Source of the DNA: an uncultured Actinomycetes bacterium
Lineage (GTDB): Bacteria; Actinomycetota; Thermoleophilia; UBA2241
DNA: 64,000 bases
Reading direction: 5' to 3'
NCBI GenBank assembly: GCA_963725665.1
Contig: CAVRZA010000001.1
Location: 224,001-288,000 of the forward strand
Shown: positions 7,620 to 58,669 of the stretch, piece by piece
Layout of the letters: every line of letters starts with the position of its first letter
Numbering within the stretch: position 1 is the first letter of the stretch
Program-made: the position numbers and the translations under genes
The notes under the pieces: model-generated
The model's database searches: none
The model's input: the letters and a program-made list of their open reading frames with translations, nothing else
What the model was told of the DNA's origin: nothing

Positions 7620-7721
7620 GAGTCCCCACCGCACCGTTGCGCAGCGCGGGCGTGGTCGGTCTTGCCAAAGGGAGCGCGGGTGGGTCGTGGGACGGCGTCG
7701 CGGCGACCCCGCCGATGGCGG

Positions 7722-8588: not shown

Positions 8589-8747
8589 GCCTGACGCTCT
8601 CCAAGGTCTCGAGCGGGGATCGCGCCGGAGGCACACGCTTGCGCCCTGCACGGCCATTTCGCCTCGCTGGGGTCTGGGCTCAGTCTACAGACGCCTGAGG
8701 TGAGCGGCCACGGCCGGTCTTCTCGATGCCAGCCTAGCTGGTCTCGT

Positions 8748-10955: not shown

Positions 10956-12190
10956 CAGGTCCTTGACGTCGTTGTGTCTGTTTGTTGCGGGAACAGCCAG
11001 CCCCGGAAGAGGACGAAGCGTAGAAGGGTGGCGGTGACGCTGGCCGCGATGAGAACAGCCAGCTCCAGGCGGTGGCTCGCACTCGGGTCGAGGCCGTGGA
11101 GGAGCACGAGGCTGCCGCTCGTCACCGTCAGGCCGAGCGCGAAGACCACGAGGCCCTGCGTCTGATGCCGCAGCCAGCCCTTTGAGCCGCGCACGCCGAA
11201 GGTGAGGCGCCGGTTCGCCGCCGTGTTGGCGATGGCGGTCGCCGCCAGCGCCAGCGCGTTGGCAAGCTGAGCCGGCAGGGCGGCGCGGAACACAAGGTAG
11301 AGTGCGGCATAGGCCAGCGTGCTGGCGGCGCCGATCAGGCAGAAGCTCGCGAGCTGCCACGCGAAACGGGGGCGCGCCGCGCCCTCCAGCGGGTCCGCCT
11401 GCCCGTCGCCGCGCAGCGCGGCGAGCGGCAGGCGGCCCGCGGTCAGGGCGCGGCGCAGCCGCCAGACGCCCTTCAGATCGGCGAGCGCCGTCGCCGCGAT
11501 GTCGACGCGAGAATCGGGGTCGTCTACCCAATCGACGGGGACCTCGTGGATGCGCATCCCGGCGCGTTCGGCCAGCACGAGGAGCTCCGTGTCGAAGAAC
11601 CAGCCCGTGTCCTCGATCAGGGGCAGCAGCCGCTGCGCCTGATCGGCGCGGATGGCTTTGAAGCCGCACTGCGCGTCGGAGAACCTCGACCTGAGCACGA
11701 CGCGCAGCAGCAAATTGTAGCAGCGCGATGTGAGCTCGCGCTTGGCGCCGCGCACGACGCGCGAGCTCCGCGCGAGCCTGGTGCCGATGGCCACGTCGGA
11801 GTGGCCCGAGAGTAGGGGCGCGACCAGCGGCAACAGCGCGGCCAACCCGGTCGAGAGGTCGACGTCCATGTAGACCAGCACGTCGGCGTCGCTGGAGCCC
11901 CAGACAGAGTGCAGCGCCCGGCCTCGTCCCTTGGCGTCGAGGTGGACGGCGCGCACCGCCGGCAGCGACCTCTCGAGCCGCCGCGCGATCGACCAGGTGT
12001 CGTCGGCGCTGGCGTTATCGGCGATGGTGAGGCGGAAGGTGAAGGGCAGGTGCGTCGTGAGGTAGGCGTACAGGCGGCGCACGTTGGGCTCGAGGTCGGC
12101 CTTCTCGTTGTAGACGGGCACGACGATGTCGAGCTCTGGCGCCGCGACCTCGGTCAGGGGAGCGACTCGATGTGCCAGCGCAGTCGTCAT
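10955..12190 (-). CDS. Bifunctional GT2 (polyprenol-P sugar synthase) + GtrA flippase-like protein
   Basis: VPVYNE, ADNAS, YMDVDLS, DAQCGFK and WFFDTE motifs; C-terminal GtrA (NRRLTF). Confidence 0.9.
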   Translation of the reverse strand: MTTALAHRVAPLTEVAAPELDIVVPVYNEKADLEPNVRRLYAYLTTHLPFTFRLTIADNASADDTWSIARRLERSLPAVRAVHLDAKGRGRALHSVWGSSDADVLVYMDVDLSTGLAALLPLVAPLLSGHSDVAIGTRLARSSRVVRGAKRELTSRCYNLLLRVVLRSRFSDAQCGFKAIRADQAQRLLPLIEDTGWFFDTELLVLAERAGMRIHEVPVDWVDDPDSRVDIAATALADLKGVWRLRRALTAGRLPLAALRGDGQADPLEGAARPRFAWQLASFCLIGAASTLAYAALYLVFRAALPAQLANALALAATAIANTAANRRLTFGVRGSKGWLRHQTQGLVVFALGLTVTSGSLVLLHGLDPSASHRLELAVLIAASVTATLLRFVLFRGWLFPQQTDTTTSRT

Positions 12191-12197
12191 GCGAGGC

Positions 12198-12252
12198 ATC
12201 GTACGTGCCTCTGCTGAAGCGGACCTGAGCCTCACCTGAGAGCCTGCTATGA
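12198..12252 (-). promoter_or_regulatory. OmpR/MprA-type direct repeats and -10 box of the GT2-GT39 operon
   Basis: Minus strand TCTCAG-N5-GCTCAG-N5-CTTCAG (11-bp period), then TACGAT 7 nt before the ATG (leaderless-type start). Confidence 0.55.
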
Positions 12253-12362
12253 ATGCCTACGAGGATCTCAGGCCGCGGTCGGGTCCTCGTGAGAGCGGGG
12301 CCGGTCCGTTAGGCTAAGCCAGCGTGCAATCGGTCGGCCCAGTTGGCGCGGGCGGAGGTGTC

Positions 12363-13124
12363 GTGGACGGTGAGGTGACGGCAGGGCCCCTGGCGGCGCG
12401 CAAGGTCTTGCGCGTGACCGCGCACGCCTACCGCCGTTGGTTCTGGCGCCTGGCCTTCACGGCTGCAGTCGTCTTCGGCGCGACCGCGATCCTCGGTGCG
12501 ACCGTCGACGCTGCCCTCGAGCACATAAAGCACAGCGGTCCCAGCCTGGTGGAGGCGGCGCTCACCGTCTACGTCTTCGTCGGACGCTTCTTCGGTACCT
12601 TGGCGCTCGTCTTCTACGCCGGGTTCCTCGACCTCTACGTGGGAGACGCCCTCTACGAGGGTAGGGAGGTCACGCTGGGTCGCGTGCTGCGCACGTTGCC
12701 GTACGGGCGACTCATCGTCGCCGACGTGATCCTCGCCGCTATCGCTCAGGTCGGGTGGCTGCTGTTCGTCGTGCCCGGGCTGTTCGTCTTCACGGCGTTC
12801 GCGCTCGTCGGACCGCTCATCATCGTGGAGGGGCACGGCATCAGGCCTGCCTTCCTCCGCTCGCGGGCGCTGGTCATGCGCCACTTCTGGCTTGTCTTCG
12901 GCGTCGTGACGCTCCCGGTTCTGGGTGAGAGCTTCGTCGTGCACGGGGTCCAGAGTCTCCTCGGCCTCGAGCACTTCTGGGGCCTTCTGCTCGTCTCGGC
13001 CCTGATCGGCATCGTGGTGGGCTCCTACTGCGGCCTCATGGAGGTCATCATCACGCGCGAGCTCATCGGCGCTCATCCCCTTGAGGTCGAGCCCGCGACG
13101 ACGCTGGGCGGGTCTGGGCGGTAG
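12363..13124 (+). CDS. Hypothetical integral membrane protein
   Basis: About 6 hydrophobic segments and an AFLRSRALV motif; GGAGG precedes GTG 12363. Confidence 0.75.
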   Translation: MDGEVTAGPLAARKVLRVTAHAYRRWFWRLAFTAAVVFGATAILGATVDAALEHIKHSGPSLVEAALTVYVFVGRFFGTLALVFYAGFLDLYVGDALYEGREVTLGRVLRTLPYGRLIVADVILAAIAQVGWLLFVVPGLFVFTAFALVGPLIIVEGHGIRPAFLRSRALVMRHFWLVFGVVTLPVLGESFVVHGVQSLLGLEHFWGLLLVSALIGIVVGSYCGLMEVIITRELIGAHPLEVEPATTLGGSGR

Positions 13125-17189: not shown

Positions 17190-18596
17190 TCAGGCTGGGC
17201 CGACGGAGCTCTTCTCGCGCAGCCGCTCGACGCTGTTGACACGCACGTTGAGCAGCCGGGCGATGCGCACCTTGGCCTCGATGCCCTTGGCGGCTCCCGG
17301 CACGCCCGTGACGACGCCGATGTCGAGCCGCTCGCGCAGCTCGCGCATGACCGTCGAGTCGCTCAGCTCCCCCAGCCCGACACCCAGCTTGTCAGCCACG
17401 TAGCGCTTCGCCTGCGGCAGCCTCATCTTCTTGAGCTGCATGCGCGCCACCAGATCTCCGGCGGTGCGGATGCCGCCCATGCCCGAGGCCAGCGAGTGGC
17501 AGACGGACATCCCCATGGGATCTCCGCCGCCCACCTACAAGCCGTCGGCTCGGCCGATCTCGACCAGGGCGACGCCGGCGCGGGTGACGACGTCCGACGG
17601 CTGTACCTCGACGGTGGGGACCCCACCCACGCCCATGCCGACGTTGGCGTGGATGGGGATCTCGGCCACCCGCGAGCACTCCTTGACGAAGGTCACCGCG
17701 CGCGCCACGTTCCAGGGCGCGGACTTGCCGGTGTTGGTCGTGCTCACCGGTCCGAAGATGTGCGCCCCCGCCCGCTCGGCGGCCTTGACTTGCTGGTGTG
17801 GCCACAGCCCTGCCAGCCGCGTGCCCTTGTACTCGAGCTCGCCGTGGAAGCCGAGGACGAGCTCGGTCGCCATGCCCACCTCGATGGCGAGGTCGGTCGT
17901 GGCGGCGAGCTCCTCGATCGCCTGTAGCGTGGCGAGGAACTCGGCGTCGCCTGCCGACCCGGTCGTGTCGAAGTCGATGCCGTCGGCGCCCATTGCCGCC
18001 ATCGCCCTGCCCATGGTCACCATGTCGCGGCGCAGGGTCTCGGCCGCCTCGAGCTGAGTCTCGCGGGCCTCCTCGATGCGTCCCTTGGGCAGCAGGTCGG
18101 CTGGGTTCGGGAAGGGGCCGTCGGGCTGAAAGTAGAGGCCCATGTTGGGCATCGCGCCGTAGAAGAGGGGCACGATGCAATCGAGGAGCGCCTGCTCCAT
18201 GCAGAGCTGCTCGAGGGCTACGAGCGCCTTGGCCGGCTTGAACGAGTAGTCGGGGTGCCCGACCTCCATGGTGTCAAAGCCCAGCGCGCGCTCCATCACG
18301 CGTATGCCCTGCTCGCGGCCGAGGGGCACGCCCACCCCGCTCGACATCTGCCCACTGTAGAGGGTGTTGGCGCAGCCGTCCTTGGTGAGGACGACCTCGT
18401 GACCGGGCGGCACGCCGGCGATGCGCCCCGGGTAGGCGAAGAGGTCGTGCAGGTAGTCGATCTCGTTGGCTTCGAGAGCGGGAATCTTCGCCTTGGCGGC
18501 CGCCGCCTCCGAGCCCTCTACGAGCTCACGCCGCAACCCGTCGGGCGTGAGCTCGACGGCGTATCCGTCACCCATGCGGGTCGTGATCGTAGTCAT
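17190..18596 (-). CDS. mtbB: Dimethylamine:corrinoid methyltransferase with in-frame amber codon (pyrrolysine, residue 354)
   Basis: [36 protein letters not shown] and GMGVGGVP motifs; ...GRADGL-TAG(17535-17537)-VGGGDPMGM..[21 protein letters not shown] continues in frame; 468 aa in total. Confidence 0.92.
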
Positions 18597-18671
18597 GGAC
18601 ACTCCCCCTCGCTTCGCGGTCGCTGCCGCTCGGTCAGTCGACAGGCTCGCCGATGATGGCGAGCCATCCTC

Positions 18672-20937: not shown

Positions 20938-23024
20938 ATGCTCAGTGACCTGCGCCAGCGCAAGGTGGCCCGCGTTCTGTTCGACGAGTTCCACGGTGAG
21001 GCCTGGACCATCCGCCCCGACGTCGCGCGCAAGATGCACCCCGAGCATCCCGAGGACGCCTCATACGCGGACGCGGCCGGGCACCTCGCCGAGCGCGACT
21101 TCGAGGTAGCCACCAGCACCGACGGACCCCTGACCGACGAGGTGTTGAGCGACACCGACGTACTCGTGATCGCCCAGCCCTCCGAACCGAAGTGGGAGCG
21201 CACGGTCAACGACAACTCGCCCGTCTTCTCGGACGCCGAGATCCGGGCCGTCGAGTCGTTCGTGTCGCGCGGGGGCGGCCTCCTCGTACTCGGCGAGGCC
21301 GAAGAGGACAAGTACGGCAGCAACCTCAACGAGCTGTTGGCGTCGTTCGGCATCCGCATCGAGAACGCGACCGTGCTCGACTACCGGGGCAACGGCAGCG
21401 GCCCGACCTGGATCGTCGGCGAGCCCGCGCCCGGCGCCGGCTCGCCGACCCTGCTGCACCTGGTGCGGCGGGTGCGTTTCTACCGCGCCGGGTCGCTCGT
21501 CGCCGACGAGCCCGGCGCGGTCGTGCTGCGCTCGGGCGACGAGGCGCAGCCGGCCCAGGCCGGGCTCCTGGCGGCGACCAGCCACGGCGTGGGTCGCGTG
21601 GTGGTCGTCGCCGACTCGGACCTCTTCGGCGACGACCACGTCGACGACCTCGACCACCTGCAGCTCTGGCACAACCTGATCTACTGGGCGGCGCTGCCGG
21701 CGTTCCGTTCCGACCCGCAGCCGATCGTCTCGGAGGCGGCGCGCGACCCCGCCTGGGAGCGCCTGCGCGACGAGACCAACGCACTGCGCCGCCTGCAGGA
21801 GCCCAAGGGTGAGGTCGACCTCGAGCGGCACGACATCGCGGAGGTGCGCGCCCGCGTGGCGGCGATGATCGAGTCGATCGGCGCTCTGACGCCGCGCTTC
21901 CCGCACGAGAAGGAGCACCTGGAGCGCGTGATCGACGACCTGCAGGCCTGGGTCGAGGGCGGTTGCGGCAAGCCCGACTTCACCGCTTCGCTGGCGCTCT
22001 TCAGGCCCGAGCAGCACCGCGCGACGGCATCGAGCACCTGGTCGTCTTTCCCATGTACACGCCCAACGGCTCGCCCGACACGCGCTTCGAGGCTCTCATC
22101 GTGCGTACGCCCTGGCCGTCGTTCATCGACGAGCTCGAGCGCACGCGCTACGACAACGACAAGTTCGTGCCGGTGCAGCTCGTCGACTACACCGACGGCT
22201 ACGCCAGCGAGTGCGCCGTTCTCTTCCCCGAGACTGTCAGCGTTGTCGGCCGGCCGACCAACTACTTCGGCGGCATCTTCTGCGACCGCGAGTCGGCGCG
22301 CTACCGGCGCTCGACCGACAAGGCCACCGACGTGCTGCGCGTCGACCTGCCGCCCGACGCCGAGGCGCTGGTGAGCTCGGGCGACCTCGCCCTCGAGACC
22401 TACATCCTCTGGGACCTGATCCACGACAGCTGGCACAGCCACGGCGATCTGCCCTTCGACCCGTTCATGATCCGCCAGCGGCTGCCCTACTGGATGTACT
22501 CGCTCGAGGAGCTGCGCGTCGACCTGGCAGCCTTCGTCGACGCCGGCAAGCTGGCCGACGAGGGGTTCGCCTTCGCGCGCTACGTGCAGTACGCGATGCT
22601 CTTCGACCGCATCGTGCGCTTCCCCATCACCGGCAACCGCGTGCGCAACTACGACGGGCTCGGCGGGCAGCTCCTGTTCGCCTACCTGCACAAGAGCGGC
22701 GTCGCGCGCTGGACCGACAACAGCCTGCTGATCGACTGGGAGCGTGTCGAGGACACCGTGGGTGCGCTGCGCGAGCGGCTGGAGGTCCTGTACCGCGAGG
22801 GCATCGACCTGAGCAAGGTCTCCTACTGGATCGCGGCCCACGATCTGGTCGCCGAGTACGTGCACCCCAACGTAAACTCGCAGTGGCAGAAGGAGACGCG
22901 CGTCTACTCCGACGAGGCAGAGCCGCGCGCGTGGGTCGAACGCGTGCTCGACGACGAGTTCCCGCTGAGCATGTTCTACGAGTCGGTGAAGAAGAAGATG
23001 GTCGAAGAGCCGGCGCTGGTGTGA
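20938..23024 (+). CDS. Fusion of a DUF4350/GIFT-like glutamine-amidotransferase-fold domain with a DUF6421-like putative metalloenzyme (frameshift near 22020)
   Basis: VLFDEFHGE, FVSRGGGLLVLGE and GRVVVVADSDLF; then VFPMYTPNGS, WDLIHDSWHSHGDLPFDPFMI, LEELR and NYDGLGGQ. Confidence 0.75.
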
Positions 23025-44850: not shown

Positions 44851-46443
44851 TCAGTAGCGCGTGCGTCCCGGCAGGGCCAGGAAGGCGCGGAGCCCGTTCT
44901 CGGTGAACGCCTTGACGTTGCCCGAGCGCGGCGGCGTCGAGGGGTTGCCGTCGTTGTCCCAGGCGATGCCGGTGAATGTCAGTCCGACGGCCTGTAGCTC
45001 GACCAGCTCGACGCCGCCCGTGGTGACGCCGGGCTGCATGGAACCGGTGGCTGCGTTGTACGCGTGGACGAGCTCATGGTAGAGGCCGACGATCGGCGGG
45101 CGCTTCATCCAGGGGTCGGCGCCGGCGCCCACCGTGATCCTGTACGGGTCGTAGGAGACCTTACTGCCAGAACCACCGCCGCGCACGCCGCCCGCGCTCA
45201 GGTAGGCGTTCGCAGCATCGAGCACCTGCGTAGCGTTGCCGCCGGACGTCGGCGCAGCCACGACGCTGCGCCGCGCGTCATCGATAGCTGCGAGAAGACG
45301 GCGACCGATCGGCAAGGAGCGCAGCGCCTCCATGTCGGAGGCGAAACGGGGCGCGAAGGCGGGGTCGGTCACGGAAGAGACGGAGCTTCCCGGGGGCTTG
45401 CCGGCGGCGTTGGTCGACGCGAGCGAGACCCAGGTCACCGTGCCGGGGGCGCTGAAGGGGCGGCGGTCGGTCCGCTGCGCGAACGTGCGTTGCGAGCCGC
45501 TGCCGCCATCGTATCTGTCGCTGCCGCCGCCCCCGGCGAGCAGGTCGTTGCCCGGTCCACCGTAGAGGGCATCATCGCCCTGGCCACCGAAGAGAAGATC
45601 GGAGCCGGGACCACCGTTGAGCCCGTCGTTGCCCGTCCCACCGTCAAGGTAGTCGTTGCCGCCGTCACCGCGCAGCGTGTCGGCGCCGCCGAGCCCGTAG
45701 AGGACGTCGTCGCCGGCGCCGCCCTCGATTCTGTCGTCGTCGGCGTCGCCTTCGAGGTAGTCGCGCCCGTCGCCGCTGGAGAGAGAGTCGTCTCCCGGGC
45801 CTCCGGTCGCGCCGTCGTCACCGGCTCCCGCCCACACGCGGTCGTTGCCAGCCCCGGCATCGATGAGATCATCGCCGGCTCCTCCGTGGATGGTGTCCGC
45901 CCCGCCGCCGCCGAAGATGCGGTCCGCTCCCGGGCCGCCGTTGACGACGTCGCGGCCGGCGCCGGCGTCGACGTAGTCGTCGCCGGCGCCGGCCGCGACC
46001 CTGTCGGCTCCCTCTCCGGCCCAGACGCTGTCGGCTCCGGCGCCTGCGGTGATCACGTCGTCGCCGCGCCCGCCGAGGATGGAGAGGCCGGCGGTGACGC
46101 TGATGTCGGCGGTGATCGTGTCGTTGCCCGCCAGGCCGTCGATGAGCAGCTGCGGCACGTCCTGCGCCGCGTGGGTCGTCGCGCTGCCGTTGATCGTCAC
46201 CGTAAGCGAGCCGTCGTCGTTCTGGTGGATCAGGATGGTGTCGTTGCCGGGCGTCCCGGAGGCGGTGACGGTGGCCGTCGCCGCGGCGGTCCTCGGCGCG
46301 GTGGCCGTCGCCGCGAGGCCGGCGAGGTCGGGAACGTCGCGACTGGCGGCCTCGCGCACGGCGACCGAGGACGGCGACGCGACGGGCGCCGCGAGCCAGG
46401 CGACGGCAAACACGGCGGCGATCACTGTGCCAGCGAGCGCCAT
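44851..46443 (-). CDS. Secreted RTX-like Ca-binding repeat protein with a C-terminal M91-like zinc metallopeptidase
   Basis: Signal-like N-terminus; many GGxGxD nonapeptides; [21 protein letters not shown] and TENGLR..L....RT.Y; start uncertain. Confidence 0.85.
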
Positions 46444-46616
46444 GCCGCCTCCGGTCGCGCGTTCGCGATGGATTCCAGCCCCACGGCGCGGCTCACGACG
46501 TTCGCTCACGCCGAGTGCGTGTTCTCCCGTCGGCTCCTCCACACAGGCTCCTCGTCCGGGACGCTGCACCCCGGCACGCGTCCAGCGGGCGCGGGGACAC
46601 GACCGCCTGCAAGCAT

Positions 46617-46644
46617 AAACGTATCCGAGCGTGGTTTCCTTAGC
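46617..46644 (-). promoter_or_regulatory. Putative ECF promoter GCTAAGG-N15-ACGTTT for the RTX peptidase
   Basis: Third copy of the motif. Confidence 0.55.
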
Positions 46645-46743
46645 ACGCCGAGAGTGGCCGACGTTCGAGGGGTCGTGCGGGGGACTCAAGTGCGTCTCGC
46701 GGGATTCCCACAGCCTCTCGGGGTGCCTGCGACGCGCGTGGGC

Positions 46744-48069
46744 TCAGCCGAAGACGGGCACGAGGAAGCCTTCGCTGTCGAACTCGAGGCGGCGCTCGTC
46801 GCGATCGACCTCGAGCTCCCAGATGGCGCTCAAGGCGCCGAGGCAGCCCCGCGACACCAGCAGGCGCTCAAGGCGCATGGTGTCGCGGATCCACACGAGG
46901 CGCAGGTCGTCGTCGGTGTAGGGCCTGATCGTCGTCAGGAGCGCGGCGATGACCTCGCGTTCGGTGGCGAACACGAGCGGCAGCCTGGAGTCCTCGGGCG
47001 TGCACGAGGTCAGGGCGTTCATCGCCGTCGCCTCGAGGTCGATGCCGGCGGCGAACCTGCGGCTGACGGCGGAGACCATACCCAACCCCAACGCGTTGCC
47101 CTGCGTGGTCGCGCTGAGACGACGCACCACGATACGCGCGATGCACGGCTCCTCCCGGGGCGCGATCCCAAGGCCGCGGGAGGAGCCGATGACGTTGGGG
47201 TCCATGCCGGCGCCGCTGATCTCCTTGCCCATCTCGTCGACGATCAGCAGGTCGATGTCGGTGAGCGGCAGCCGCGGCAGCACGCTCTTCGCCAAGGCCA
47301 GCAGCATGATCTCGGTGGCCTCGAGCGTCTCGGGTGGCACGAGACGGACGACCATGGGCTCGTGGTCCTGGTTCTCGACGATGGCCACGGCGAAGAGGAC
47401 GTTGACCTTGGCGAGGAGGGCGCGGGCGACGGCGAGGATCGACTCGCCGAGCCCGCGCGAAAGGCCGTAGCGGTGGTACCGCTCGGCCCCCGCCTGCTTG
47501 CCGAGGCCAATGGCCAGCATCTTGAGAGGGCCGCTCTCGACCGGTCCGACGAAGTCGGTGTGCGGCTTCACGCGGTTGACGAGGACGACACCGTCGGCCT
47601 CGTATGCGTTGCGGTCGAGATACAGGGGGATGCCGTTGGCTTCACCGAGCACCGCGACCTCCATCGTCGCGCGCACCGGCGCTCCCACGCTGTCGGGCGT
47701 GACGCCTCGGTGGGCGAGCACCTCGGTCTGCCCCTGGGCCGTCGCGCCGCCGTGGGAACCCATGGCGGGCACGATGAAGGGCTCGAGTCCCTGCTCCTTC
47801 AGCTTCGCGACCACGTGGCGGACCGTCTCCGGCAGGCGGTCGATGCCGCGGCTGCCGACGGCGACCGCCACGCGCGCACCACGGGGCAGCGTGATGCGCG
47901 AGGCCACCGACTCCCACTGGCCATCGATCTCGCGCGCAGGGTCGACGGGGGGTGGCACCACGAAGCTCTGGCGGACCAGGTGCATCGCTGGCAGCCGTGG
48001 TTCCCCCTTGTGAAGCGGGAACGAAAGAACGGGGACGCTGAGGGAGCCTGCTGAGGGTGTCTCGTCCAC
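46744..48069 (-). CDS. LarA/DUF362-like domain protein
   Basis: AVGSRGI, PAMGSHGGAT, NRVKPHTDF, ESG..KM..IGLGK and GKEISGAGMD motifs; start may be 47985. Confidence 0.85.
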   Translation of the reverse strand: MDETPSAGSLSVPVLSFPLHKGEPRLPAMHLVRQSFVVPPPVDPAREIDGQWESVASRITLPRGARVAVAVGSRGIDRLPETVRHVVAKLKEQGLEPFIVPAMGSHGGATAQGQTEVLAHRGVTPDSVGAPVRATMEVAVLGEANGIPLYLDRNAYEADGVVLVNRVKPHTDFVGPVESGPLKMLAIGLGKQAGAERYHRYGLSRGLGESILAVARALLAKVNVLFAVAIVENQDHEPMVVRLVPPETLEATEIMLLALAKSVLPRLPLTDIDLLIVDEMGKEISGAGMDPNVIGSSRGLGIAPREEPCIARIVVRRLSATTQGNALGLGMVSAVSRRFAAGIDLEATAMNALTSCTPEDSRLPLVFATEREVIAALLTTIRPYTDDDLRLVWIRDTMRLERLLVSRGCLGALSAIWELEVDRDERRLEFDSEGFLVPVFG

Positions 48070-48109
48070 GAGGGCCAGCGTACCACTACGCGCCCGGGCC
48101 AGGGAAAGA

Positions 48110-48147
48110 GTCGACGGCGCGCGACGCGGGGTCGACGGCGCGCGACG
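48110..48147 (+). repeat. Direct repeat GTCGACGGCGCGCGACG x2 (21-bp period) in a divergent promoter region
   Basis: Copies at 48110-48126 and 48131-48147. Confidence 0.7.
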
Positions 48148-48212
48148 GGGGTTAACACCGCCGCGCCAGGGGTACTAGGGGCCCAGGTCGCTTCTCACGT
48201 CTGGGGGATCAC

Positions 48213-48452
48213 ATGGCGAACGACACCGCTTCACTCACGCTCGACTGCATCGGGCTATACTGCCCCGAGCCGCTCTTCCAGACCCGCGAGAGCATCGACT
48301 CGATCGAGATCGGCGAGGTGCTCGAGGTGTTCACGGACGACCCGGCGGCCGAGGAGGACCTCACGCGCTTCGCCAAGCGCGCGGGTCACGAGGTCGTGGC
48401 CCTCGAGCGTGACGGTGACCAGCTGCACATCCTGATCCGGCGCCTGAAGTGA
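48213..48452 (+). CDS. tusA: TusA family sulfurtransferase
   Basis: LDCIGLYCPEP and DDPAA motifs; 79 aa. Confidence 0.9.
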   Translation: MANDTASLTLDCIGLYCPEPLFQTRESIDSIEIGEVLEVFTDDPAAEEDLTRFAKRAGHEVVALERDGDQLHILIRRLK

Positions 48453-48550
48453 CGCGGCGCTGAGGCTCGCGATCGGACTGCGATCGCTCCTGCCGCGCCC
48501 GGCAGGGCGCACGACCGGCAGTAACACCACGACGGATAGGGAGAGAGACG

Positions 48551-48913
48551 ATGAGAAACGAGAAGGCTATCCTCTACGTGCAGACCACAGACCAGCCCGA
48601 GAAGCAGTACTCGCCGCTGGTGCTCGCGCAGACGGCGAAGGCCATGGACCTCGAGCCCGCCGTCTACTACCTTGGCTTGGGGCTCAAGATCCTCAAGCCG
48701 GGCGCTGCCGACCAGATCAAGCTGGGGACCTTCCCCAGCGTCAAGGAGATGCTCGACAAGACGCTCGGCATGGGGATTCCCGTCTACGTGTGCGAGGCTT
48801 CGAAGCAGATGCTCGGTTGGGAGACGGTGGAGCTCATCGACGGCGTCAAGATCGTCGGCGCGGGGACGCTCAACGACCTCTCGCTCGACGCCGGCGCCAC
48901 GATGTGGTTCTGA
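48551..48913 (+). CDS. DsrE/F-like sulfur relay protein
   Basis: VYVCEAS motif, GVKIVGAG, DsrE-like size. Confidence 0.85.
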   Translation: MRNEKAILYVQTTDQPEKQYSPLVLAQTAKAMDLEPAVYYLGLGLKILKPGAADQIKLGTFPSVKEMLDKTLGMGIPVYVCEASKQMLGWETVELIDGVKIVGAGTLNDLSLDAGATMWF

Positions 48914-48947
48914 TTCCGCAGTCGTCGTGTCGAGAGAGAACGCGCCG

Positions 48948-50132
48948 ATGACGGTGATCGCGCAGAGCGACGTCGTCTACGCCGACTATCAGTCGTCGAA
49001 GCCGGTCGACGCGCGCGTCGTCGAGGCGATGCTGCCGTACTTCGCGGAGACCTTCGGCAACGCCTCGGCGCTGCACGGTGTCGGCGACGTGGCCACGGCC
49101 GCCCTCGACGACGCGCGCGCCCGCGTCGCCGCCTTCTTCGGCGCCAAGCCCGAAGAGATCGTCTTCACTTCGGGTGCCACCGAGTCCAACAACCTCGCCA
49201 TCATCGGGTATGCGCTGCGCAACCGGCGCAAGGGCGACCACGTGCTGATCACCGAGGCCGAGCACATCTCGATCCTCAACATCGCCAAGTACTTGCAGAA
49301 GAACGGCTTCACCGTGACCCGTGTGCCCATCGACCTCTACGGTCGCGTGTCGCCCAAGAAGCTGCGCGCGCGCGTCACCGACGACACCATCCTGGTGTCG
49401 GTGGGCTGGGCGAGCAACGAGATCGGCACGCTGCAGCCGGTCGCCGAGATCGCCGAGATGCTCGAGGGCACGGGGATCGTGCTGCATAGCGACGCCGTCG
49501 CCGCCGAGGGCCTCGTGCCGCTCGACATGAGCGCCGTGCCGGTCGGCCTCATGAGCCTCTCGTCGAACGACCTCTACGGGCCACGCGGCCTGGGCGCGCT
49601 CTACGTGCGCAAGGGCGTGCAGCTCGCGCCGGTCACGATCGGCGGCGGCCAGGAGCGCGGGCTGCGCTCGGGCACCGAAGACCTCGCCTCGATCGCCGGC
49701 ATGGCCGCCGCCACCGACGTCATGGCGGCCGAGATGGCGACTGAGGTGGCGCATATCAGGGCCATCCGCGATCGTCTGGTGGAGCGGGTGCTCGACGAGA
49801 TCCCCGACTCGCACCTCAACGGCCACCCCACGGAGCGCTTGCCCAACAACGCGCACTTCCGCTTCGACGCGGTCGAAGGCGAGGCGATGGTGCTTTCGCT
49901 GCGCGACGCCGGCATCGCGGCGGCGACCGGCTCGGCCTGTAGCTCCAAGACCCTCGAGCCCTCGCATACCCTCCTCGCCACCGGCCTGTTGCACGAGGAG
50001 GCGCACGGCTCGCTCGAGTTCACCTTCGGGCGCTACAGCAAGGAGGAGGACGTCGAGCGCATCATGGACGCGCTGCCGGCGGTCGTGGCCCGGCTGCGCA
50101 GGCTGTCACCCCTCTATGCGGAGAAGGCCTGA
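48948..50132 (+). CDS. iscS: IscS/NifS-type cysteine desulfurase homolog lacking the PLP lysine (SSND)
   Basis: FGNAS, FTSGATESNN, NEIGT, GGGQE.GLRSGT and TGSACSS motifs; SSNDLYGP replaces SxHKxYGP. Confidence 0.9.
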   Translation: MTVIAQSDVVYADYQSSKPVDARVVEAMLPYFAETFGNASALHGVGDVATAALDDARARVAAFFGAKPEEIVFTSGATESNNLAIIGYALRNRRKGDHVLITEAEHISILNIAKYLQKNGFTVTRVPIDLYGRVSPKKLRARVTDDTILVSVGWASNEIGTLQPVAEIAEMLEGTGIVLHSDAVAAEGLVPLDMSAVPVGLMSLSSNDLYGPRGLGALYVRKGVQLAPVTIGGGQERGLRSGTEDLASIAGMAAATDVMAAEMATEVAHIRAIRDRLVERVLDEIPDSHLNGHPTERLPNNAHFRFDAVEGEAMVLSLRDAGIAAATGSACSSKTLEPSHTLLATGLLHEEAHGSLEFTFGRYSKEEDVERIMDALPAVVARLRRLSPLYAEKA

Positions 50133-50199
50133 GGGGCGGGCCTGGACGCGCGGCGACCTCGGACACTGACGACGAAACAAGTGGCGACAAGGACGGACG

Positions 50200-51009
50200 A
50201 TGAAATCGACCCAGTACACCGACAAGACCCTCGAGCACTTCCGTAACCCGCGCAACGTGGGCACCCTCGAGGGCCCCAACGTCGCCGTGGGCCGCGTGGG
50301 CAACCCGACCTGCGGCGACCTCATGGACATCTACATAGAGGTCGACGACGACCGCATCAAGGACATCAAGTTCCAGACCTTCGGCTGTGGATCCGCCGTG
50401 GCGACCTCGAGCATGATCACCGAGCTCGTCGTGGGCATGACGCTCGACGACGCCCTGAAGGTCTCGCGCGGCGACGTCGCCGACGCGCTCGACGGTCTGC
50501 CGCCGATCAAGATGCACTGCAGCAACCTGGCGGCCGACGCCCTGCACGAGGCGATCAAGAACTGGCGCGAAGGCGTCAAGCCGGAGGACGCGATGAAGAC
50601 GCCGGGCGGCACCGCCTGTCACCCGATCCCGGCGGCAGTGGCCGAGGTCGAGATCGCCCGACTCGACGAGTACGAGGGCAAGGGCCTGTACCGGCGGGTG
50701 AACGTGGAACAACTCAAGGACCTCGCCGACCAGCGCGTCGTCGTGCTCGACACCGGCGACCGCGCCGCCCAGCTCGCCATGGACCTCACGCAGCACACCG
50801 GCCGTGTCGTGCTGATGACCATCGGTAAGGAGCCGAGCGTGACGCCTGCCGTGCGCTCGGCTCTGCGCCTCAGCGACGTGAAGGTGCTGGGCGAAGCGCA
50901 GCCGCTCGAGCTGCTTGGCGAGGGCGAGCTCGAGCGCATCCGTGTGCACGACCTCAACGAGGACGAGGAATACGAGCTCACAGCCGACGCGTTCGTCGTG
51001 CTGAAGTAG
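50200..51009 (+). CDS. iscU: IscU/NifU Fe-S scaffold fused to a thioredoxin-reductase-like NAD(P)H-domain fragment
   Basis: HFRNPRN, GNPTCGD, FGCGSA and KMHCSNL; C-terminal part GKGL...DQRVVV..TGDRA...ADAFVV. Confidence 0.85.
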   Translation: MKSTQYTDKTLEHFRNPRNVGTLEGPNVAVGRVGNPTCGDLMDIYIEVDDDRIKDIKFQTFGCGSAVATSSMITELVVGMTLDDALKVSRGDVADALDGLPPIKMHCSNLAADALHEAIKNWREGVKPEDAMKTPGGTACHPIPAAVAEVEIARLDEYEGKGLYRRVNVEQLKDLADQRVVVLDTGDRAAQLAMDLTQHTGRVVLMTIGKEPSVTPAVRSALRLSDVKVLGEAQPLELLGEGELERIRVHDLNEDEEYELTADAFVVLK

Positions 51010-51145
51010 CATCGTCCCCGCGCTCGGCGACTCCCACTGCGGCGCGGCGCGTCGTCGTGCAGGGGACGGAGACTCGCCGAGTCGTGACGTGCCCTGCGCT
51101 CGTGCGGGTCGGCCGCGCGACGCGCGGCAGGTAGACTCTCTCCTC

Positions 51146-52045
51146 GTGACTTCTCGCAGCGCAGCCTCAGCCGAGGGCGGCCGGCGCGCAGCCGGCACGG
51201 CCGCCCTCATCGTAGTCGTCGTCGCCTTCTCGTTTCAGACGGGCTCGGCGTTGGCTACGCGCCTGATCGGGCACGTCGGCATCGTCGAGGCGGTGTGGCT
51301 GCGCACGGCCTTTGGTTTCGCGATCCTAGTCCTCGTGCAGCGTGGCGGCCTGCGCTGGCCGGAGCGGGGCCATCGGCTGGCCTTTGCCGCCCTCACCGTG
51401 TCGCTGGCGGCCATGAACCTGAGCTTCTACGGCGCCATATCGCAGGCCCCGCTCGGTGTCGTGGTGGCGGTGGAGTTCCTCGGCCCTCTCTCCGTCGCCG
51501 TGGCCGGTTCGCGCCGGCCGCTCGACTTCGCCTGGATCTCGCTGGCTGCTGTGGGCGTTGTGTTGCTCGCCGGACCCACGAGCTCGGTGAGCGCCCTCGG
51601 GCTGAGCTTGGCGCTATGTGCAGCGGCCTCGTGGGGGTTGTTCCTGGTCTTCGCCAAGCGCGCCGTGACGGCGATGGACCCGCTCCCGGTCGTTACTCTG
51701 ATGCTGGGGTGTTCGACCCTGCTGCTCACACCAGCGCTGGTCACGACAGACCCGTCGTCGATGCTCAACGGGACGGCGCTGCTGCTTGGCTTGGCGGTGG
51801 CGGTGCTCTCGTCGAGCTTCCCATACGTGCTCGAGCTCGTCGCCCTGCGGCTCGTGCGGGCCGCGACCTACGGCGTGTTCTTGAGCATCGAGCCCGCGGT
51901 CGCCGCGCTGACGGGCTTCGTCATCCTGTCGCAGCGCTTGAGCGTAGCCGAGTGGGCGGCCATCGCCGCCGTGGTGGCCGCCGCAGCCGGCTCGAGCTGG
52001 ACCAGCAAAGCCGGCAAGCAAGTCGCTGAGATAGCGGCGGTCTAG
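51146..52045 (+). CDS. EamA/RhtA-type DMT transporter
   Basis: MNLSFY, PLG..VAVEFLGPL, SSSFPY.LE and SIEPA motifs. Confidence 0.9.
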   Translation: MTSRSAASAEGGRRAAGTAALIVVVVAFSFQTGSALATRLIGHVGIVEAVWLRTAFGFAILVLVQRGGLRWPERGHRLAFAALTVSLAAMNLSFYGAISQAPLGVVVAVEFLGPLSVAVAGSRRPLDFAWISLAAVGVVLLAGPTSSVSALGLSLALCAAASWGLFLVFAKRAVTAMDPLPVVTLMLGCSTLLLTPALVTTDPSSMLNGTALLLGLAVAVLSSSFPYVLELVALRLVRAATYGVFLSIEPAVAALTGFVILSQRLSVAEWAAIAAVVAAAAGSSWTSKAGKQVAEIAAV

Positions 52046-54787: not shown

Positions 54788-55978
54788 GTGGACTTCGACA
54801 AGCCGACCGAGCGCCGCGGCAGCGCCAGCTTCAAGTGGGACCTCTACCCCGAGGACGTGCTCCCCCTGTGGGTCGCCGACATGGACTTCGCCTCGCCGCC
54901 GCCGGTCATCGCCGCGCTCGCGGCGCGCGCCTCTCACGGCGTGTTCGGTTACTCCGTCGTGCCCGACTCGCTTGTCGATGCCGTCGTCGCTCATCTCGCG
55001 GCTCGTTACGGCTGGCGCATCGAGCCGCAGTGGCTCGTGTGGCTGCCGAGCGTGGTCCCCGGGCTCGAGCTCGTGTGCCGGGCCTTCGCCGCGGATGCGG
55101 AGGCGGTGATGACGGTGACGCCGGTCTACCCGCCGTTCCTCGAGGCGCCGCCTCATCAGGGACGGCGCCTCGTCACGGTGCCGGCACTCTTCGACGAGGC
55201 GCCGCCGCCGGTCGGGTCGTCAGAGGCGGCTTCTGTCAAACCGACGGGTGTTCCTCCGGCGACGTGCTGGCGGCTGCCGCTGGCGGACATGGCGGCGGCC
55301 TGCGCGCCGGACACGCGTGCGTTGCTCTTCTGCCACCCGCACAACCCGCTGGGACGGGTGTGGAGGAGGGACGAAGTCGAGGCGGTCGCCTCCTTCTGCC
55401 GCGAGCGCGGGCTCGTGCTCTGCTCCGACGAGATCCACTGCGACCTGCTGCTGGATCAGCTCGAGCACGTTCCGGCGGCGCTGCTCTCAGACGAGGTGGC
55501 CGAGATCACGGTCACGCTGATGTCGCCGAGTAAGACCTTCAACCTGCCGGGGCTCAACTTCGCCTTCGCGGTGATCCCCAACGAGGAGCTGCGGCGGCGA
55601 TTCGCGGCAGCCGGCGAAGGGCTGCTGCCCTTCCCCGGCTGCTTCGCCGTCGCCGCCGCGGAGGCCGCCTACCGCGAGGGCGGCCCGTGGCTGGCCGAGC
55701 TGCTCGAGTACCTGCGCGGCAACGCCGAGCTCGTCGAGTGCTTCGTGCGCGACGAGCTCCCCAACGTGACGATCACGCACGTCGAGGCGACCTACCTGGC
55801 CTGGCTCGACGTGCGCGCCGTCGGCTTGCCCGACCCCGGCGCGGCCTGCGTCCGCGCCGGGGTCGCTCTCTCCGACGGCGCCGCCTTCGGCGCGCCGGGC
55901 TTCCTGCGTCTGAACTTCGCCTGTCCCCGGCCGACCCTGCGCGAGGCGCTCTCGCGGCTGTGCGGCGCCCTGAGCTGA
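54788..55978 (+). CDS. PatB/MalY family C-S lyase (cystathionine beta-lyase)
   Basis: KWD, PLWVADMDF, HPHNP.GRVW, SDEIH, SPSKTFN and FLRLNFAC motifs. Confidence 0.92.
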   Translation: MDFDKPTERRGSASFKWDLYPEDVLPLWVADMDFASPPPVIAALAARASHGVFGYSVVPDSLVDAVVAHLAARYGWRIEPQWLVWLPSVVPGLELVCRAFAADAEAVMTVTPVYPPFLEAPPHQGRRLVTVPALFDEAPPPVGSSEAASVKPTGVPPATCWRLPLADMAAACAPDTRALLFCHPHNPLGRVWRRDEVEAVASFCRERGLVLCSDEIHCDLLLDQLEHVPAALLSDEVAEITVTLMSPSKTFNLPGLNFAFAVIPNEELRRRFAAAGEGLLPFPGCFAVAAAEAAYREGGPWLAELLEYLRGNAELVECFVRDELPNVTITHVEATYLAWLDVRAVGLPDPGAACVRAGVALSDGAAFGAPGFLRLNFACPRPTLREALSRLCGALS

Positions 55979-56151
55979 TCTCTCGCGCGCCGTCTTGGGT
56001 TGACGGCACTCGCCGGCGTCTTGGGCCAAAGGGCACGCGCGGCGTCCGCTCCCTTTGACGCCTGGGTGGACTTTCGCCAATACGGATTAGGTGACCTCTT
56101 CGTCGGGCAAGATGCGCCTGCACACGGGATGCTTCTCGAGGAGGACACGAC

Positions 56152-56301
56152 ATGATCCCGCTGCTCCTTCTGCTCATCGCGATCGCACTGGTGTTCGGTT
56201 TCGGCTTCGTGGCCAGGTGGCTCTTCATCATGGCCGCGATCCTGTTCGCGGTCTGGGTCATCGGGTTCTTCGTCGGCCGCAGACGGTGGTACCGCTGGTG
56301 A
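56152..56301 (+). CDS. Small hydrophobic membrane peptide (49 aa, ends RRRWYRW); absent from the ORF track
   Basis: GAGGAGG RBS; MIPLLLLLIAIALVFGFGFVARWLFIMAAILFAVWVIGFFVGRRRWYRW resembles actinobacterial 'hydrophobic proteins'. Confidence 0.8.
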   Translation: MIPLLLLLIAIALVFGFGFVARWLFIMAAILFAVWVIGFFVGRRRWYRW

Positions 56302-56309
56302 CCCGATTC

Positions 56310-56793
56310 ATGATGAGCATTGTCCCGGGCGGCTCCCGCGGGCCGGGACGGTCTTCCGCCACACCCGGTGACGACTTCGCGAACGTGACGTTGACCGGCC
56401 CCGTGGACCTGGCGGGGATGCGAGCCGTCGTCCGCCGGCTCTTGAGCGGTCACGGCGTCGACGAGGTCACGGTGGAGGAGATCGTCCTGGCGACACAGGA
56501 GGCGTCGAAGAACGCTCTGACGCTTCGCCAAGGGGCCGGATGCGTGTGCCTCCGTCACGCTGCATGTCGTCAGCGGCGAGGTGCTCGTGGAGGTGCTCGA
56601 CTGTGGCGGGGGCTTCGACGTGACGTGCGAAGGCATCGACGTGGCGCAGCCTCTCGACGAGCACGGCCGCGGCATCTTCCTCATGCGGCGCTTCATGGAC
56701 ACCCTGGAGGTCGTGCCGAACGGGGTCGGCTGTCTCGTGCGGATGACGAAACGGCTGGGACGGATCGACCTCACGGGGACGGGCGGAGCCTGA
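56310..56793 (+). CDS. RsbW-like anti-sigma / ATP-binding protein (frameshift near 56535)
   Basis: LATQEASKNA, EV.DCGGGF and EHGRGIFLM motifs. Confidence 0.8.
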
Positions 56794-56833
56794 CGCGCCG
56801 CGCGACGGCGGGCCGGCGGCGTGAGGCGATGAG

Positions 56834-58520
56834 TCAGAGCAGGCGGACGGCCTCGTCGCGCGCGAAGCGCGCCCACTCGGCCGGCCGCCCGTCGTCTTCG
56901 GCTCACGAGGCCGCGACCCTCTTCGCCGAGCTCCGCGATGACCGTCGCGGCGATGCCCGCGTCCTTCAGGGCGGCCAGGAGAGCATCGGTTTCCTCCGGG
57001 GCGCAACAGACGAGCAGGCTGCCCGAGCCGATGAGGCCGCGGGGGTCGGCCCCCAGCAGGTCGCAGATCCGTCTCGTCTCGGGGTAGACGGGTATCGAGG
57101 CGGGGTGCACGGTGACGCGCCGTCCGCAGGCGATACCGAGCTCCTCGAGAGCCGTGGCGAGCCCGCCCTCGGTCACGTCGTGCAGGGCGTGGACGCCTTC
57201 GAAGCCGACGGCCACGCGCGCCTCGGGAAGCACGCTGATGCGATCGAGAAAGCCGAGACAGACGTCGAGCTCGGCGTCGGTCATGCCCAGGTCTCGCAGC
57301 TTATCGCCCAGCTCGGCGGCGAGGAGCGCCGTACCCTCGACGGCGAGCGCCTTGGTGAGCAGCACGCGGTCGCCGGCGGCAGCGCCGCGCTTGTCGCGCA
57401 GATCGGCGCGCGCCAGCGTGCCGACCATGGTCGCGCTCACGAGGGGGCTGGCGATCACTTCGGTGACCTCGGTGTGGCCGCCGACCACGGCGATGCCGAG
57501 GTCGGCGGCCGCCGCGGCGATGCTGCCGAGCAGCGCGAGTGCCTGCGAGGAGGTGCTTCCCGCCGGCAGAAGGACGGTGGTGAGCAGCCAGCGGGGCAGC
57601 GCTCCCGAGGTGGCGATGTCGTTGGCGTTGACCAGGACGCTGTAGCGGCCCAGGTTGGCGCTGGTGAGGGTGATCGGGTCGCCGTGCACGACGATGACCT
57701 CGTCGCGCGACACGTCGATGGCGGCGACGTCCTCGCCGACGCCGGCCCCCACGATGACGGCCGGGTCGGGCGGCGCATCGGGGCCCGTCCCCCCGGTCAC
57801 GCGGCGCAGGTAGCTCGTCAGCAGGTCGTTGGGCAGCTTGCCCTGGGGCAGAGGAAGGCCGAGACGCACCACGTCGTCGACTTCGCCGAGCGAGCTCACG
57901 AGGAAGTCGGCGGCCGGCGGCGCTGCGTCGTCGTCCGGTCCCGGCGCCGCCGGCCGCGCCGGACCGCCGCTGTTCTCGAGGTAGACTGTCACCGCGCCGG
58001 CCGCCTCGCCCGCCTGCACGTCGAGGTGATAGTCGCCGACCATGAGCAGGCGGTCGGGCGCCACGCCCATGAGCTGCGCCGCGTGCAGTACGCCGTCGGG
58101 CGCCGGCTTGTGGGGCAGATCGTCGTCGCGCGTCACGATCACGTCGAAGTCGGCCGCGCGCAGCCCGACGCCGAGCTCCGCGAAGCGGGCGAAGACGGCG
58201 TCGACGGCCGCGCGGCCGCTGCGCGTGATGACACCGAGGCGCAGGCCGAGCCCGCGCAGGCGGCGCACGAGCTCCTCGGCGCCCGGGTTGGGCTCGGCCT
58301 GCGCCGCGCCCACAAGCTCGAACCGTTCGAGGGCGGCGAGCGCGGCCGCGCGCTCGCCGCCCTCCGGAAGCTCCAGGATGTACTCGAGCACGTAGATGTC
58401 GTCGGGGCACCCGACCTCGCGCCTGATGAGGGCGAAGTCGAGCGCCTCGGGACGCGTGAGCGTGCCGTCGAAGTCGAACAGCACTCCCTCGAGGCGGAAG
58501 GGTCGCGGAAGGATCTCCAT
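56834..58520 (-). CDS. HAD hydrolase fused to an AIR-synthase-like (PurM/HypE fold) domain (frameshift near 56900)
   Basis: FDFDGTL, KPAPDG and VGD motifs; then GKLP, GEDVA, NANDIA, GGHTEVT, HDVTEGG and terminal RDE. Confidence 0.85.
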
Positions 58521-58669
58521 TGTCACAGGATATCGAATCGCACACGGTGCGTGGCGACCGAGGGTGCCCGGGTGTGGCCGCTGGCCGATGCGAGGAGTAG
58601 AGTCCGTCGCGTGGCTGTTGAACGTTCAGTCAAGACCGCAAACGGCATGAGCGCCGTCGGGGATCTGCC

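Follow-up and report, generated by a model that had tools for sequence, protein, structure and literature searches.

A lysine-less IscS relative encoded with TusA, a DsrE3-like protein and an extended IscU in an uncultured Thermoleophilia-like actinobacterium

How does an iron–sulfur (Fe–S) cluster scaffold obtain its sulfur when the desulfurase encoded beside it has lost the catalytic lysine? This question is raised by a four-gene module in a 64,000-nucleotide stretch of DNA (the window; contig CAVRZA010000001.1, positions 224,001 to 288,000) from an uncultured, Thermoleophilia-like actinobacterium. On the + strand of the window, four closely spaced genes run in the order tusA, dsrE-like, iscS-like and iscU, and their main features are as follows.

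48213-48452, + strand: tusA, 79 aa (open reading frame, ORF, and Pfam TusA)
48551-48913, + strand: gene for a DsrE3-like sulfur transferase, 120 aa (ORF and Pfam DsrE)
48948-50132, + strand: gene for an IscS/MisS-like pseudo-desulfurase with the class-V aminotransferase fold, 394 aa (Pfam Aminotran_5)
49569-49571, + strand: GAC codon for Asp208, at the site of the pyridoxal 5′-phosphate (PLP) Schiff-base lysine
49938-49940, + strand: TGT codon for Cys331, in the mobile GSACSS loop
50200-51009, + strand: iscU, 269 aa (ORF and Pfam NifU_N)
50200-50571, + strand: IscU scaffold domain, residues 1-124 (Pfam, Foldseek and ligand conservation)
50572-50646, + strand: IscU linker, approximately residues 125-149, predicted to be disordered and holding Cys149 (GTACHP)
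50647-51009, + strand: IscU C-terminal domain, approximately residues 150-269 (AlphaFold2 model and Foldseek)

A sequence-only reading of this DNA had described the Asp codon within SSNDLYGP, the retained Cys of the GSACSS loop, an IscU with three cysteines and a histidine, and tusA (CPEP) and dsrE (CEAS) genes ahead of iscS. Codon reading confirmed the Asp, and the other elements were likewise recovered: Cys331 in the loop; Cys38, Cys63, Cys107 and His106 in IscU, together with Asp40; and the motifs LDCIGLYCPEP and YVCEAS in the two upstream products. Our analysis adds two features to that description, a remodelled PLP pocket in the IscS-like protein and an extra C-terminal domain in IscU.

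The IscS-like protein and its remodelled pocket

The lysine site is encoded by TCG TCG AAC GAC CTC TAC GGG, which reads SSNDLYG within the motif SSNDLYGP. Pfam matches the protein to Aminotran_5 over residues 10-371 (9.7e-70), and its NCBIfam scores lie under the cut-offs for both NifS (TIGR03402, 449.3 bits, cut-off 530.75) and IscS (NF010611, 376 bits, cut-off 548). The best solved relative is IscS2 of Archaeoglobus fulgidus (4eb5, 4eb7 and 4hvk; E 8.9e-134, residues 10-391 against 2-381), in which the alignment places SSNDIYGP opposite the SSNDLYGP of the window, bearing out the earlier statement that the archaeal protein carries the same Asp; entry 4r5f differs from the other A. fulgidus IscS2 entries at a single position, with Lys in place of that Asp. 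The A. fulgidus protein has Asp199, binds pyridoxamine 5′-phosphate (PMP) and lacks desulfurase activity (PMC8918507, cited here, like every paper below, for the excerpts available of its text), and one of its Cys residues ligates the [2Fe-2S] cluster of IscS–IscU (PMC8918507, PMC13066941); the sequence-only reading had stated both the missing activity and the ligation.

The substitution is kept among close relatives. All 120 closest database homologues listed, which stem from independent assemblies (79-98% identity, full length; named sources Thermoleophilia, Solirubrobacteraceae and Actinomycetes), combine S[SA]ND[ILF]YGP with GSACSS, so that Asp208 is neither a chance event nor a sequencing error. 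A wider sample drew on the nearest clusters at 50% identity: of 150 representatives, 131 carry Lys at this site and 19 do not. Five of the 19 read Asn-Asp (ND), and the 19 include P0158, a fragment whose local alignment is doubtful. As many members of a large group of soil actinobacteria have the pseudo-desulfurase, it is more than a peculiarity of archaea.

Nine ND sequences were compared with 72 sequences from related loci that retain the lysine (Lys-type) at positions 17, 18, 185, 207, 208, 303 and 357, which we take, from E. coli IscS, to be cofactor- or substrate-binding sites. Position 208 is Asp in 9/9 ND sequences and Lys in 72/72 Lys-type sequences; position 207 is Asn (9/9) against His (68/72), and position 185 is Ala (9/9) against Gln (71/72). 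The Thr residues found at positions 17 (71/72) and 18 (68/72) of the Lys-type set are replaced in the ND set, position 303 changes from Asn (69/72) to mostly His, and position 357, presumably the Arg that binds the substrate carboxylate, is Arg in 71/72 Lys-type sequences and E, L, Q or V in the ND set (Glu in the window). Because these further cofactor and substrate positions are lost along with the Lys, the whole catalytic pocket has been given up.

Other parts of the active site are retained. Asp182, His106, Ser205 and Thr74, all cofactor-contacting, are invariant in the ND alignment, which fits the PMP or PLP reported to be present non-covalently in the A. fulgidus IscS structures (PMC8918507). 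The Cys331 column is Cys in 147/151 aligned relatives, and its equivalent is the persulfide carrier in active enzymes and a cluster ligand in A. fulgidus IscS (PMC13066941, PMC8918507). By sequence similarity and by the residues kept, the IscS-like protein is orthologous to the inactive IscS of A. fulgidus; it has lost the desulfurase pocket and kept the loop Cys, and is predicted to be a non-catalytic desulfurase relative paired with a complete scaffold.

Sulfur carriers, gene linkage and descent

TusA of the window is recognized by Pfam at 4.7e-23 (81.3 bits against a cut-off of 28.6); its CPEP motif contains Cys17, and a further Cys stands at position 12. Its closest solved chains are those of E. 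coli TusA (1dcj and 3lvj_C, E 4.5e-13), in which the Cys of LGLRCPEP aligns with the CPEP Cys of the window. As the NCBIfam TusA equivalog score (53.4) lies under the cut-off of 78, the protein is assigned to the TusA family and not to the E. coli-type equivalog. Across the eight TusAs linked to ND-type genes, Cys17, Pro18 and Pro20 are invariant (8/8), and a second Cys lies five residues before Cys17 in six of them.

The DsrE-like protein matches Pfam DsrE (2.3e-12, 47.6 bits against a cut-off of 22.7) and DrsE_2 (1.3e-12), and scores far under the NCBIfam DsrE2 cut-off (28.4 against 210). The candidate active residue, Cys81 in YVCEAS, is kept in the window and in five related copies, and it aligns with a Cys of the closest solved relative, 3mc3 (E 2.2e-11). 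This chain is Saccharolobus SSO1125, a DsrE3A; archaeal DsrE3A is established as a carrier of thiosulfonate in partnership with TusA, and DsrE3A/TusA pairs count as established sulfur relays (PMC11094781). We therefore use the label DsrE3-like, which rests on the best solved match being a DsrE3A.

Linkage between the carriers and the lysine-less gene was examined by scanning species-representative genomes with an alignment of ND-type sequences as query, which returned at least 80 loci; the nearest Thermoleophilia loci (>80% identical) lie outside the 80 considered here. Among these 80 loci, eight are ND-type, from Actinomycetota (L001, L002, L004), Thorarchaeota (L003), Nitrospinota (L005), Bathyarchaeota (L006, L007) and Spirochaetota (L036), and 72 are Lys-type. 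A hidden Markov model (HMM) built from the linked TusAs was then run over all 80 loci. A tusA gene within 1.5 kb on the same strand was found in 8/8 ND loci, always upstream of iscS, against 1/72 Lys-type loci (L074, where it lies downstream), so that the expected co-occurrence of SSND-type iscS with tusA held among the loci listed. At least 1.5 kb of sequence is visible upstream in 58/72 Lys-type loci and on both sides in 52/72. In 5/8 ND loci tusA and iscS are separated by a DsrE-like gene, which is found beside iscS in 0/72 Lys-type loci. Fisher's test for the tusA linkage, ND against Lys-type, gives p = 3e-10 with relatedness ignored.

Pfam confirmed TusA in 5/8 ND loci and also in L074; the TusAs of L001, L002 and L005 were seen by phmmer or the HMM only, because the ORF filter had dropped them from the Pfam set. 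The module is kept in five phyla and two domains of life with flanking genes that vary by locus, and no further conserved neighbour was shared in a Pfam scan of 114 ORFs from nine loci. Flavoproteins are encoded upstream in two loci only: L036 has a flavodoxin and a nitroreductase, L006 an FMN reductase. On this evidence from gene order, TusA is a consistent partner of the ND-type gene product and a DsrE3-like protein a frequent one. Being kept across two domains while its surroundings changed, the linkage argues for function.

In L004, a metagenome-assembled genome of an actinobacterium, frameshifts within 6596-8967 break both the dsrE-like gene and the part of iscU for the C-terminal domain, with dsrE partly read within the iscS ORF and iscU split into 8156-8836 and 8776-8967; these frameshifts are probably assembly errors.

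TusA is also found with Lys-type proteins. Two of the Lys-type representatives are TusA–desulfurase fusions, with TusA at the C-terminus in P0174 and at the N-terminus in P0181, and they support a physical coupling of TusA with the IscS family. Because TusA is linked or fused to the Lys-type proteins of L074, P0174 and P0181, linkage alone gives no direction of sulfur flow. Complex prediction for TusA with the IscS-like dimer scored 0.09 against a mark of 0.32, which speaks neither for nor against binding. Other fusions were seen among the Lys-type representatives P0131, P0216, P0265 and P0220, namely IscS–NifU_N, selenium/sulfur carrier–IscS, IscS–AIR-synthase-like (SelD-type) and molybdopterin oxidoreductase–IscS.

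A quick, unrooted maximum-likelihood tree of 98 sequences was assessed by the Shimodaira–Hasegawa-like approximate likelihood ratio test (SH-aLRT, mark 95). All ND loci and the window fall into one 16-row Lys-less group (support 92, under the mark), which also holds P0126 (ND), P0129 (SA), P0130 (NS), P0138 (GP) and P0146 (SD). This group is nested in a 30-row group (support 93) whose Lys-type members come from Methanobacteriota, Thermoplasmatota, Bathyarchaeota, Woesearchaeota and candidate-phyla bacteria; within it, the Spirochaetota, Thorarchaeota and Actinomycetota sequences, including the window, form a subclade with support 99. The ND sequences are thus one group beside archaeal sequences, in line with the phylogenetic check proposed from the sequence, and Fisher's test overstates independence because the ND loci form one group.

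A second Lys-less clade (support 99) comprises six representatives (reading QG, HR, QQ, ND, HT and GR) together with the Lys-type L074, and suggests an independent Lys-less lineage with links to sulfur carriers. L074 itself (Nitrospirae, 6519-12763) encodes Rrf2, a Lys-type IscS, IscU and TusA, followed downstream by a glycine-cleavage-H-like (lipoate-binding) protein, a dihydrolipoamide-dehydrogenase-like protein and two DsrE proteins; by its gene content, this context is of the sulfur-oxidation type.

The extended IscU and the route of sulfur

IscU is matched by Pfam NifU_N at 2.1e-45 and scores 185.0 with NCBIfam TIGR03419, just under the cut-off of 187.9. The scaffold ligands Cys38, Asp40, Cys63, His106 and Cys107 are invariant in 15/15 aligned long IscUs, and the Foldseek matches of the N-terminal half include the IscU structures 7cnv and 4eb5_C, the latter from A. 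fulgidus. In the AlphaFold2 model, which was built on 15 sequences with a mean predicted local distance difference test (pLDDT) score of 80, linker residues 134-148 fall below a pLDDT of 50; a linker Cys occurs in all 15 aligned long IscUs, though not in one shared column.

The C-terminal half is matched by Foldseek to 3lzw, a ferredoxin-NADP reductase (FNR) of B. subtilis (E 7.4e-10, 28% identity, 120 columns, root-mean-square deviation 1.8), and further to 2q7v, 3f8p and 1hyu. In the predicted structure, the fold is that of the NAD(P)H-binding domain of ferredoxin-NADP reductases of the thioredoxin reductase (TrxR) type and of thioredoxin reductases (Rossmann-type). NCBIfam TrxR matches residues 177-265 (E 5.7e-6) and an Atlas feature search of the domain returned Pyr_redox clusters (score 0.96), while no Pyr_redox Pfam match was obtained on the window IscU. 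The FAD domain is absent, as IscU ends after the NADPH-type domain, and there is no CxxC in the domain. The glycine motif has degenerated to DTGDRA, in which Gly186 alone is invariant (15/15), and, with the canonical dinucleotide motifs as we understand them, the stretch after the second strand, presumably basic in functional domains, here reads MTIGKE. An acidic stretch, L-D/N-E-D-x-E/D-Y-E-L, is strongly conserved.

The extra domain is not confined to the window. Residues 128-269 have 228 homologues, and among the 120 listed, 112 are proteins of 256-271 aa with an N-terminal NifU_N domain, the remaining eight having other, mostly shorter, lengths. Long IscUs occur in L001-L004 and L036, the subclade with support 99, and not in the Bathyarchaeota loci. 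We take the domain to be derived from a reductase, with nucleotide binding probably lost; our guess is that it serves reductant docking or iron handling.

How these components would work together is proposed as follows. We judge it an even call that the four genes constitute a minimal iron–sulfur cluster (ISC)-type module, resembling the minimal ISC system (MIS), in which TusA and the DsrE3-like protein pass sulfane sulfur to the Cys331 loop of the IscS-like protein and then to IscU, sulfur being supplied without PLP-dependent cysteine desulfuration. The IscS-like dimer would be the platform for IscU and would provide Cys331 as a fourth ligand or sulfur shuttle, in the way that the A. fulgidus structure has IscU bound to the IscS dimer and a ligand supplied by it. 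Cys17 of TusA would be loaded with sulfane sulfur or thiosulfonate, either directly or via Cys81 of the DsrE3-like protein, from a sulfur source that would be encoded outside the window. TusA would dock on the IscS-like protein in the manner of the E. coli TusA–IscS pair, with sulfur travelling in the opposite direction, from TusA to Cys331 and, as Cys331 swings to IscU, onto the scaffold. Reduction of sulfane sulfur to sulfide takes two electrons, and these would come from a separate donor, for which the FNR-derived, motif-degenerate IscU domain might, speculatively, provide a docking site. Delivery through TusA and DsrE, as the sequence-only reading had proposed, we infer from gene linkage; the direction of sulfur flow and the reductant are inferences too. 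A broader reading, which we put forward tentatively and at less than even confidence, is that of a cysteine-independent Fe–S machine in bacteria and archaea, with a reverse TusA/DsrE3 relay and an FNR-derived pseudo-nucleotide domain captured, in one subclade, by IscU to recruit the reductant, or iron via the acidic EDEEYEL stretch.

Several observations weigh against this relay. The operon contains neither an enzyme that would supply sulfur (rhodanese, sulfide:quinone oxidoreductase or a second desulfurase) nor a reductant gene; the DsrE-like gene is absent from 3/8 ND loci, and L005 has no IscU directly downstream. TusA stands beside, or is fused with, presumably active Lys-type desulfurases, where it would be the acceptor. 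The ND loci all fall in a single tree group (support 92), and the tusA linkage may be traceable to one ancestral operon. PMP or PLP reported in A. fulgidus IscS, together with the retained Asp182, His106 and Ser205, may reflect some cofactor-dependent role for the IscS-like protein.

One alternative is a scaffold in which the ND-type IscS and IscU use free sulfide, with TusA and DsrE buffering, sensing or detoxifying reactive sulfur, or regulating by competition with IscU. Sulfide is the hypothesis offered by the authors for A. fulgidus (PMC8918507), MIS and SMS are described as able to use it (PMC13066941), the partners of IscS, IscU and TusA among them, have distinct binding sites (PMC11302665), and DsrE is dispensable in three of the eight ND loci. 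The strict same-strand adjacency of tusA in 8/8 ND loci from two domains is, however, hard to explain for a mere buffer. To our knowledge, a sulfide-rich habitat is not expected for Thermoleophilia-like soil actinobacteria, which also counts against free sulfide, and overall we find this explanation rather unlikely. A module devoted to sulfur trafficking outside Fe–S assembly (tRNA thiolation, molybdopterin or a thio-cofactor), with the IscS-like protein as adaptor and IscU as a cluster-bearing sulfur-insertion or redox partner, seems improbable. TusA and DsrE (TusD) homologues do serve tRNA thiolation and molybdenum-cofactor synthesis in E. coli (PMC13066941), and Foldseek and the literature search gave no counterpart of the IscU C-terminal domain in known scaffolds; yet the A. 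fulgidus complex carries its [2Fe-2S] cluster at the IscS–IscU interface (PMC13066941, PMC8918507). In addition, Pfam scans of the window and loci found no thiolation enzyme (MnmA, ThiI or MoaD/MoeB-like) conserved beside the module, and IscU keeps the full scaffold ligand set.

A residual enzyme with non-covalent PLP or PMP, whether a desulfurase using another base, a transaminase-like enzyme or a persulfide-lyase acting on a TusA- or DsrE-bound substrate, has in our view a very small chance of being correct, given the loss of the Arg for the substrate carboxylate and of the Thr-Thr pair. It would account for the invariance of Asp182, His106, Ser205 and Thr74 and for Asn-Asp being strictly kept (9/9), which suggests selection on Asn207 and Asp208. 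The A. fulgidus structures do contain PMP or PLP, whereas the A. fulgidus protein is inactive and even its D199K variant has PMP, not PLP (PMC8918507). A pseudogene or a sequencing or assembly error, which found no support although one related locus (L004) has frameshifts in dsrE and iscU, is ruled out by the 120/120 homologues with ND and full length; the ND motif also recurs in five phyla and in a crystallised protein.

Surroundings of the module and comparison with known systems

The module is bordered upstream by a divergent DUF362 gene (46744-48069, minus strand) and downstream by an EamA transporter gene (51089-52045). The longest iscS ORF runs from TTG 48672 and overlaps dsrE; the likeliest start is ATG 48948, with the end at 50132, because this ATG matches the N-terminus of relatives. 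iscU begins 67 nt after the end of iscS. The 143-nt gap between the DUF362 gene and tusA contains both copies of a direct repeat:

48110-48151, no strand given: tandem 21-nt direct repeat, two copies (repeat scan)

This repeat, GTCGACGGCGCGCGACG[C/G]GGG, is 21 nt long and GC-rich, with 95% identity between the copies and a spacing of 21, and its right part recurs before dsrE as a 23-nt copy (48506-48528, 78% similar). The repeats may be regulator-binding or operator sites, with their membership of the operon uncertain. Scans of 47800-51400 gave no sigma-70-like promoter and one terminator-like site, at chance level, and no Rfam family matched in 47900-51400.

Neighbours of the module in the window include the DUF362 and EamA genes, a sigma factor, an RTX/M91 protein and others. 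Protein domain scans of the window found no iscA, hscBA, fdx or cyaY next to the module, and no sHdr, Dsr, LbpA or other sulfur-oxidation genes within the 64 kb. A search of the window for other genes of Fe–S or sulfur metabolism returned only a PLP enzyme of Cys/Met metabolism (369-1586) and a glycine-cleavage P protein, whose Aminotran_5 match is weak.

Several further genes of the window were recorded. A homologue of the dimethylamine methyltransferase MtbB (17190-18602, - strand) has a single in-frame TAG at 17535-17537 (residue 356), with its two halves matching Pfam Dimeth_PyL at 1e-135 and 3e-45 and the break falling between profile positions 353 and 356; we take this TAG to stand at the pyrrolysine site of MtbB. 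Neither a tRNA gene nor pyl genes were seen in the 64-kb window, and the literature search gave no pyrrolysine or mtbB paper mentioning Thermoleophilia. A DUF6421 gene (20938-23024, + strand) appears split over two frames near 22000-22057, with ORF 20938-22374 covering profile positions 1-103 and ORF 21963-23024 positions 85-425; this points to a frameshift, a pseudogene or faulty assembly. The RTX/M91 protein (44851-46689, - strand, 612 aa) has seven matches to RTX calcium-binding repeats and, at its C-terminus, a Peptidase_M91 domain; the M91 family is known from injected effector proteases, and such a combination is unusual in a Thermoleophilia-like genome. At 55773-58526 (- strand), a HAD phosphatase is fused to an N- and C-domain pair related to AIR synthase (PurM/SelD/HypE-type); an Arg/Pro-rich tail after approximately residue 540 looks like non-coding read-through, which leaves the true end uncertain. 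An 871-aa multihaem cytochrome c (1736-4351, - strand) matches the cytochrome c7, c552 and MtrC/MtrF-like families.

With respect to earlier work, the Lys-less IscS (A. fulgidus) and the MisS–MisU systems are already known. A search of the non-subscription literature returned no paper linking TusA or DsrE to a Lys-less IscS, no description of a fusion of IscU with a reductase domain, and no report of tusA/dsrE linkage for A. fulgidus. How the Lys-less A. fulgidus IscS–IscU assembles clusters without desulfurase activity is given as an open question, with free sulfide as the sole idea, in the excerpts of a 2022 review (PMC8918507), and MIS-type systems are called the least studied Fe–S machineries in those of a 2026 review (PMC13066941). 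Linkage to TusA and DsrE names two candidate sulfur donors, both of which share an operon with the pseudo-desulfurase across two domains of life, and the question of the sulfur source is thereby opened to transfer and reconstitution experiments. If true, the reverse relay would answer how Lys-less IscS–IscU systems such as that of A. fulgidus get their sulfur.

The window IscS was placed beside archaeal sequences in the 30-row group (support 93) in a tree that ran without author-labelled MisS sequences. MIS, the minimal ISC system made up of MisS and MisU, was reportedly set out by Garcia et al. in 2022. It resembles the window module in pairing a desulfurase-like protein with a scaffold, with no genes for an A-type carrier, chaperone or ferredoxin nearby. 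Minimal MisS–MisU systems are known in bacteria and archaea (PMC13066941, PMC12192291); MIS is described with a cysteine desulfurase (PMC12192291), whereas the window module has no intact desulfurase pocket and brings two sulfur carriers in addition.

For the E. coli IscS–TusA complex (3lvj) and the Tus relay, the resemblance lies in the window TusA, whose active Cys aligns with that of the E. coli protein and whose gene neighbours that of an IscS homologue. The E. coli relay passes sulfur from active IscS to TusA, whereas the window IscS is predicted to be unable to make a persulfide, which would mean that the flow is reversed or that TusA has another role. The DsrE3A/TusA relays of sulfur oxidisers (Metallosphaera, sHdr) likewise place a small DsrE3-like protein with a conserved Cys beside TusA; in the window, the partner is instead an Fe–S scaffold pair, and sulfur-oxidation genes are absent. 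TrxR-type FNR and thioredoxin reductase NADPH domains (3lzw, 2q7v, 3f8p) have the fold of IscU residues ~150-269, whereas the window domain is fused to IscU, lacks the FAD domain and the CxxC, and has a degenerate glycine motif. A. fulgidus IscS2–IscU (4eb5, 4eb7, 4hvk; D199K, 4r5f) shares with the window the SSND motif, the loop Cys and an IscU with all ligands; the two differ in host, archaeal in the one and bacterial, Thermoleophilia-like, in the other, and in the scaffold, a chain of 138 residues (4eb5_C) in A. fulgidus against 269 aa with an FNR-like domain in the window.

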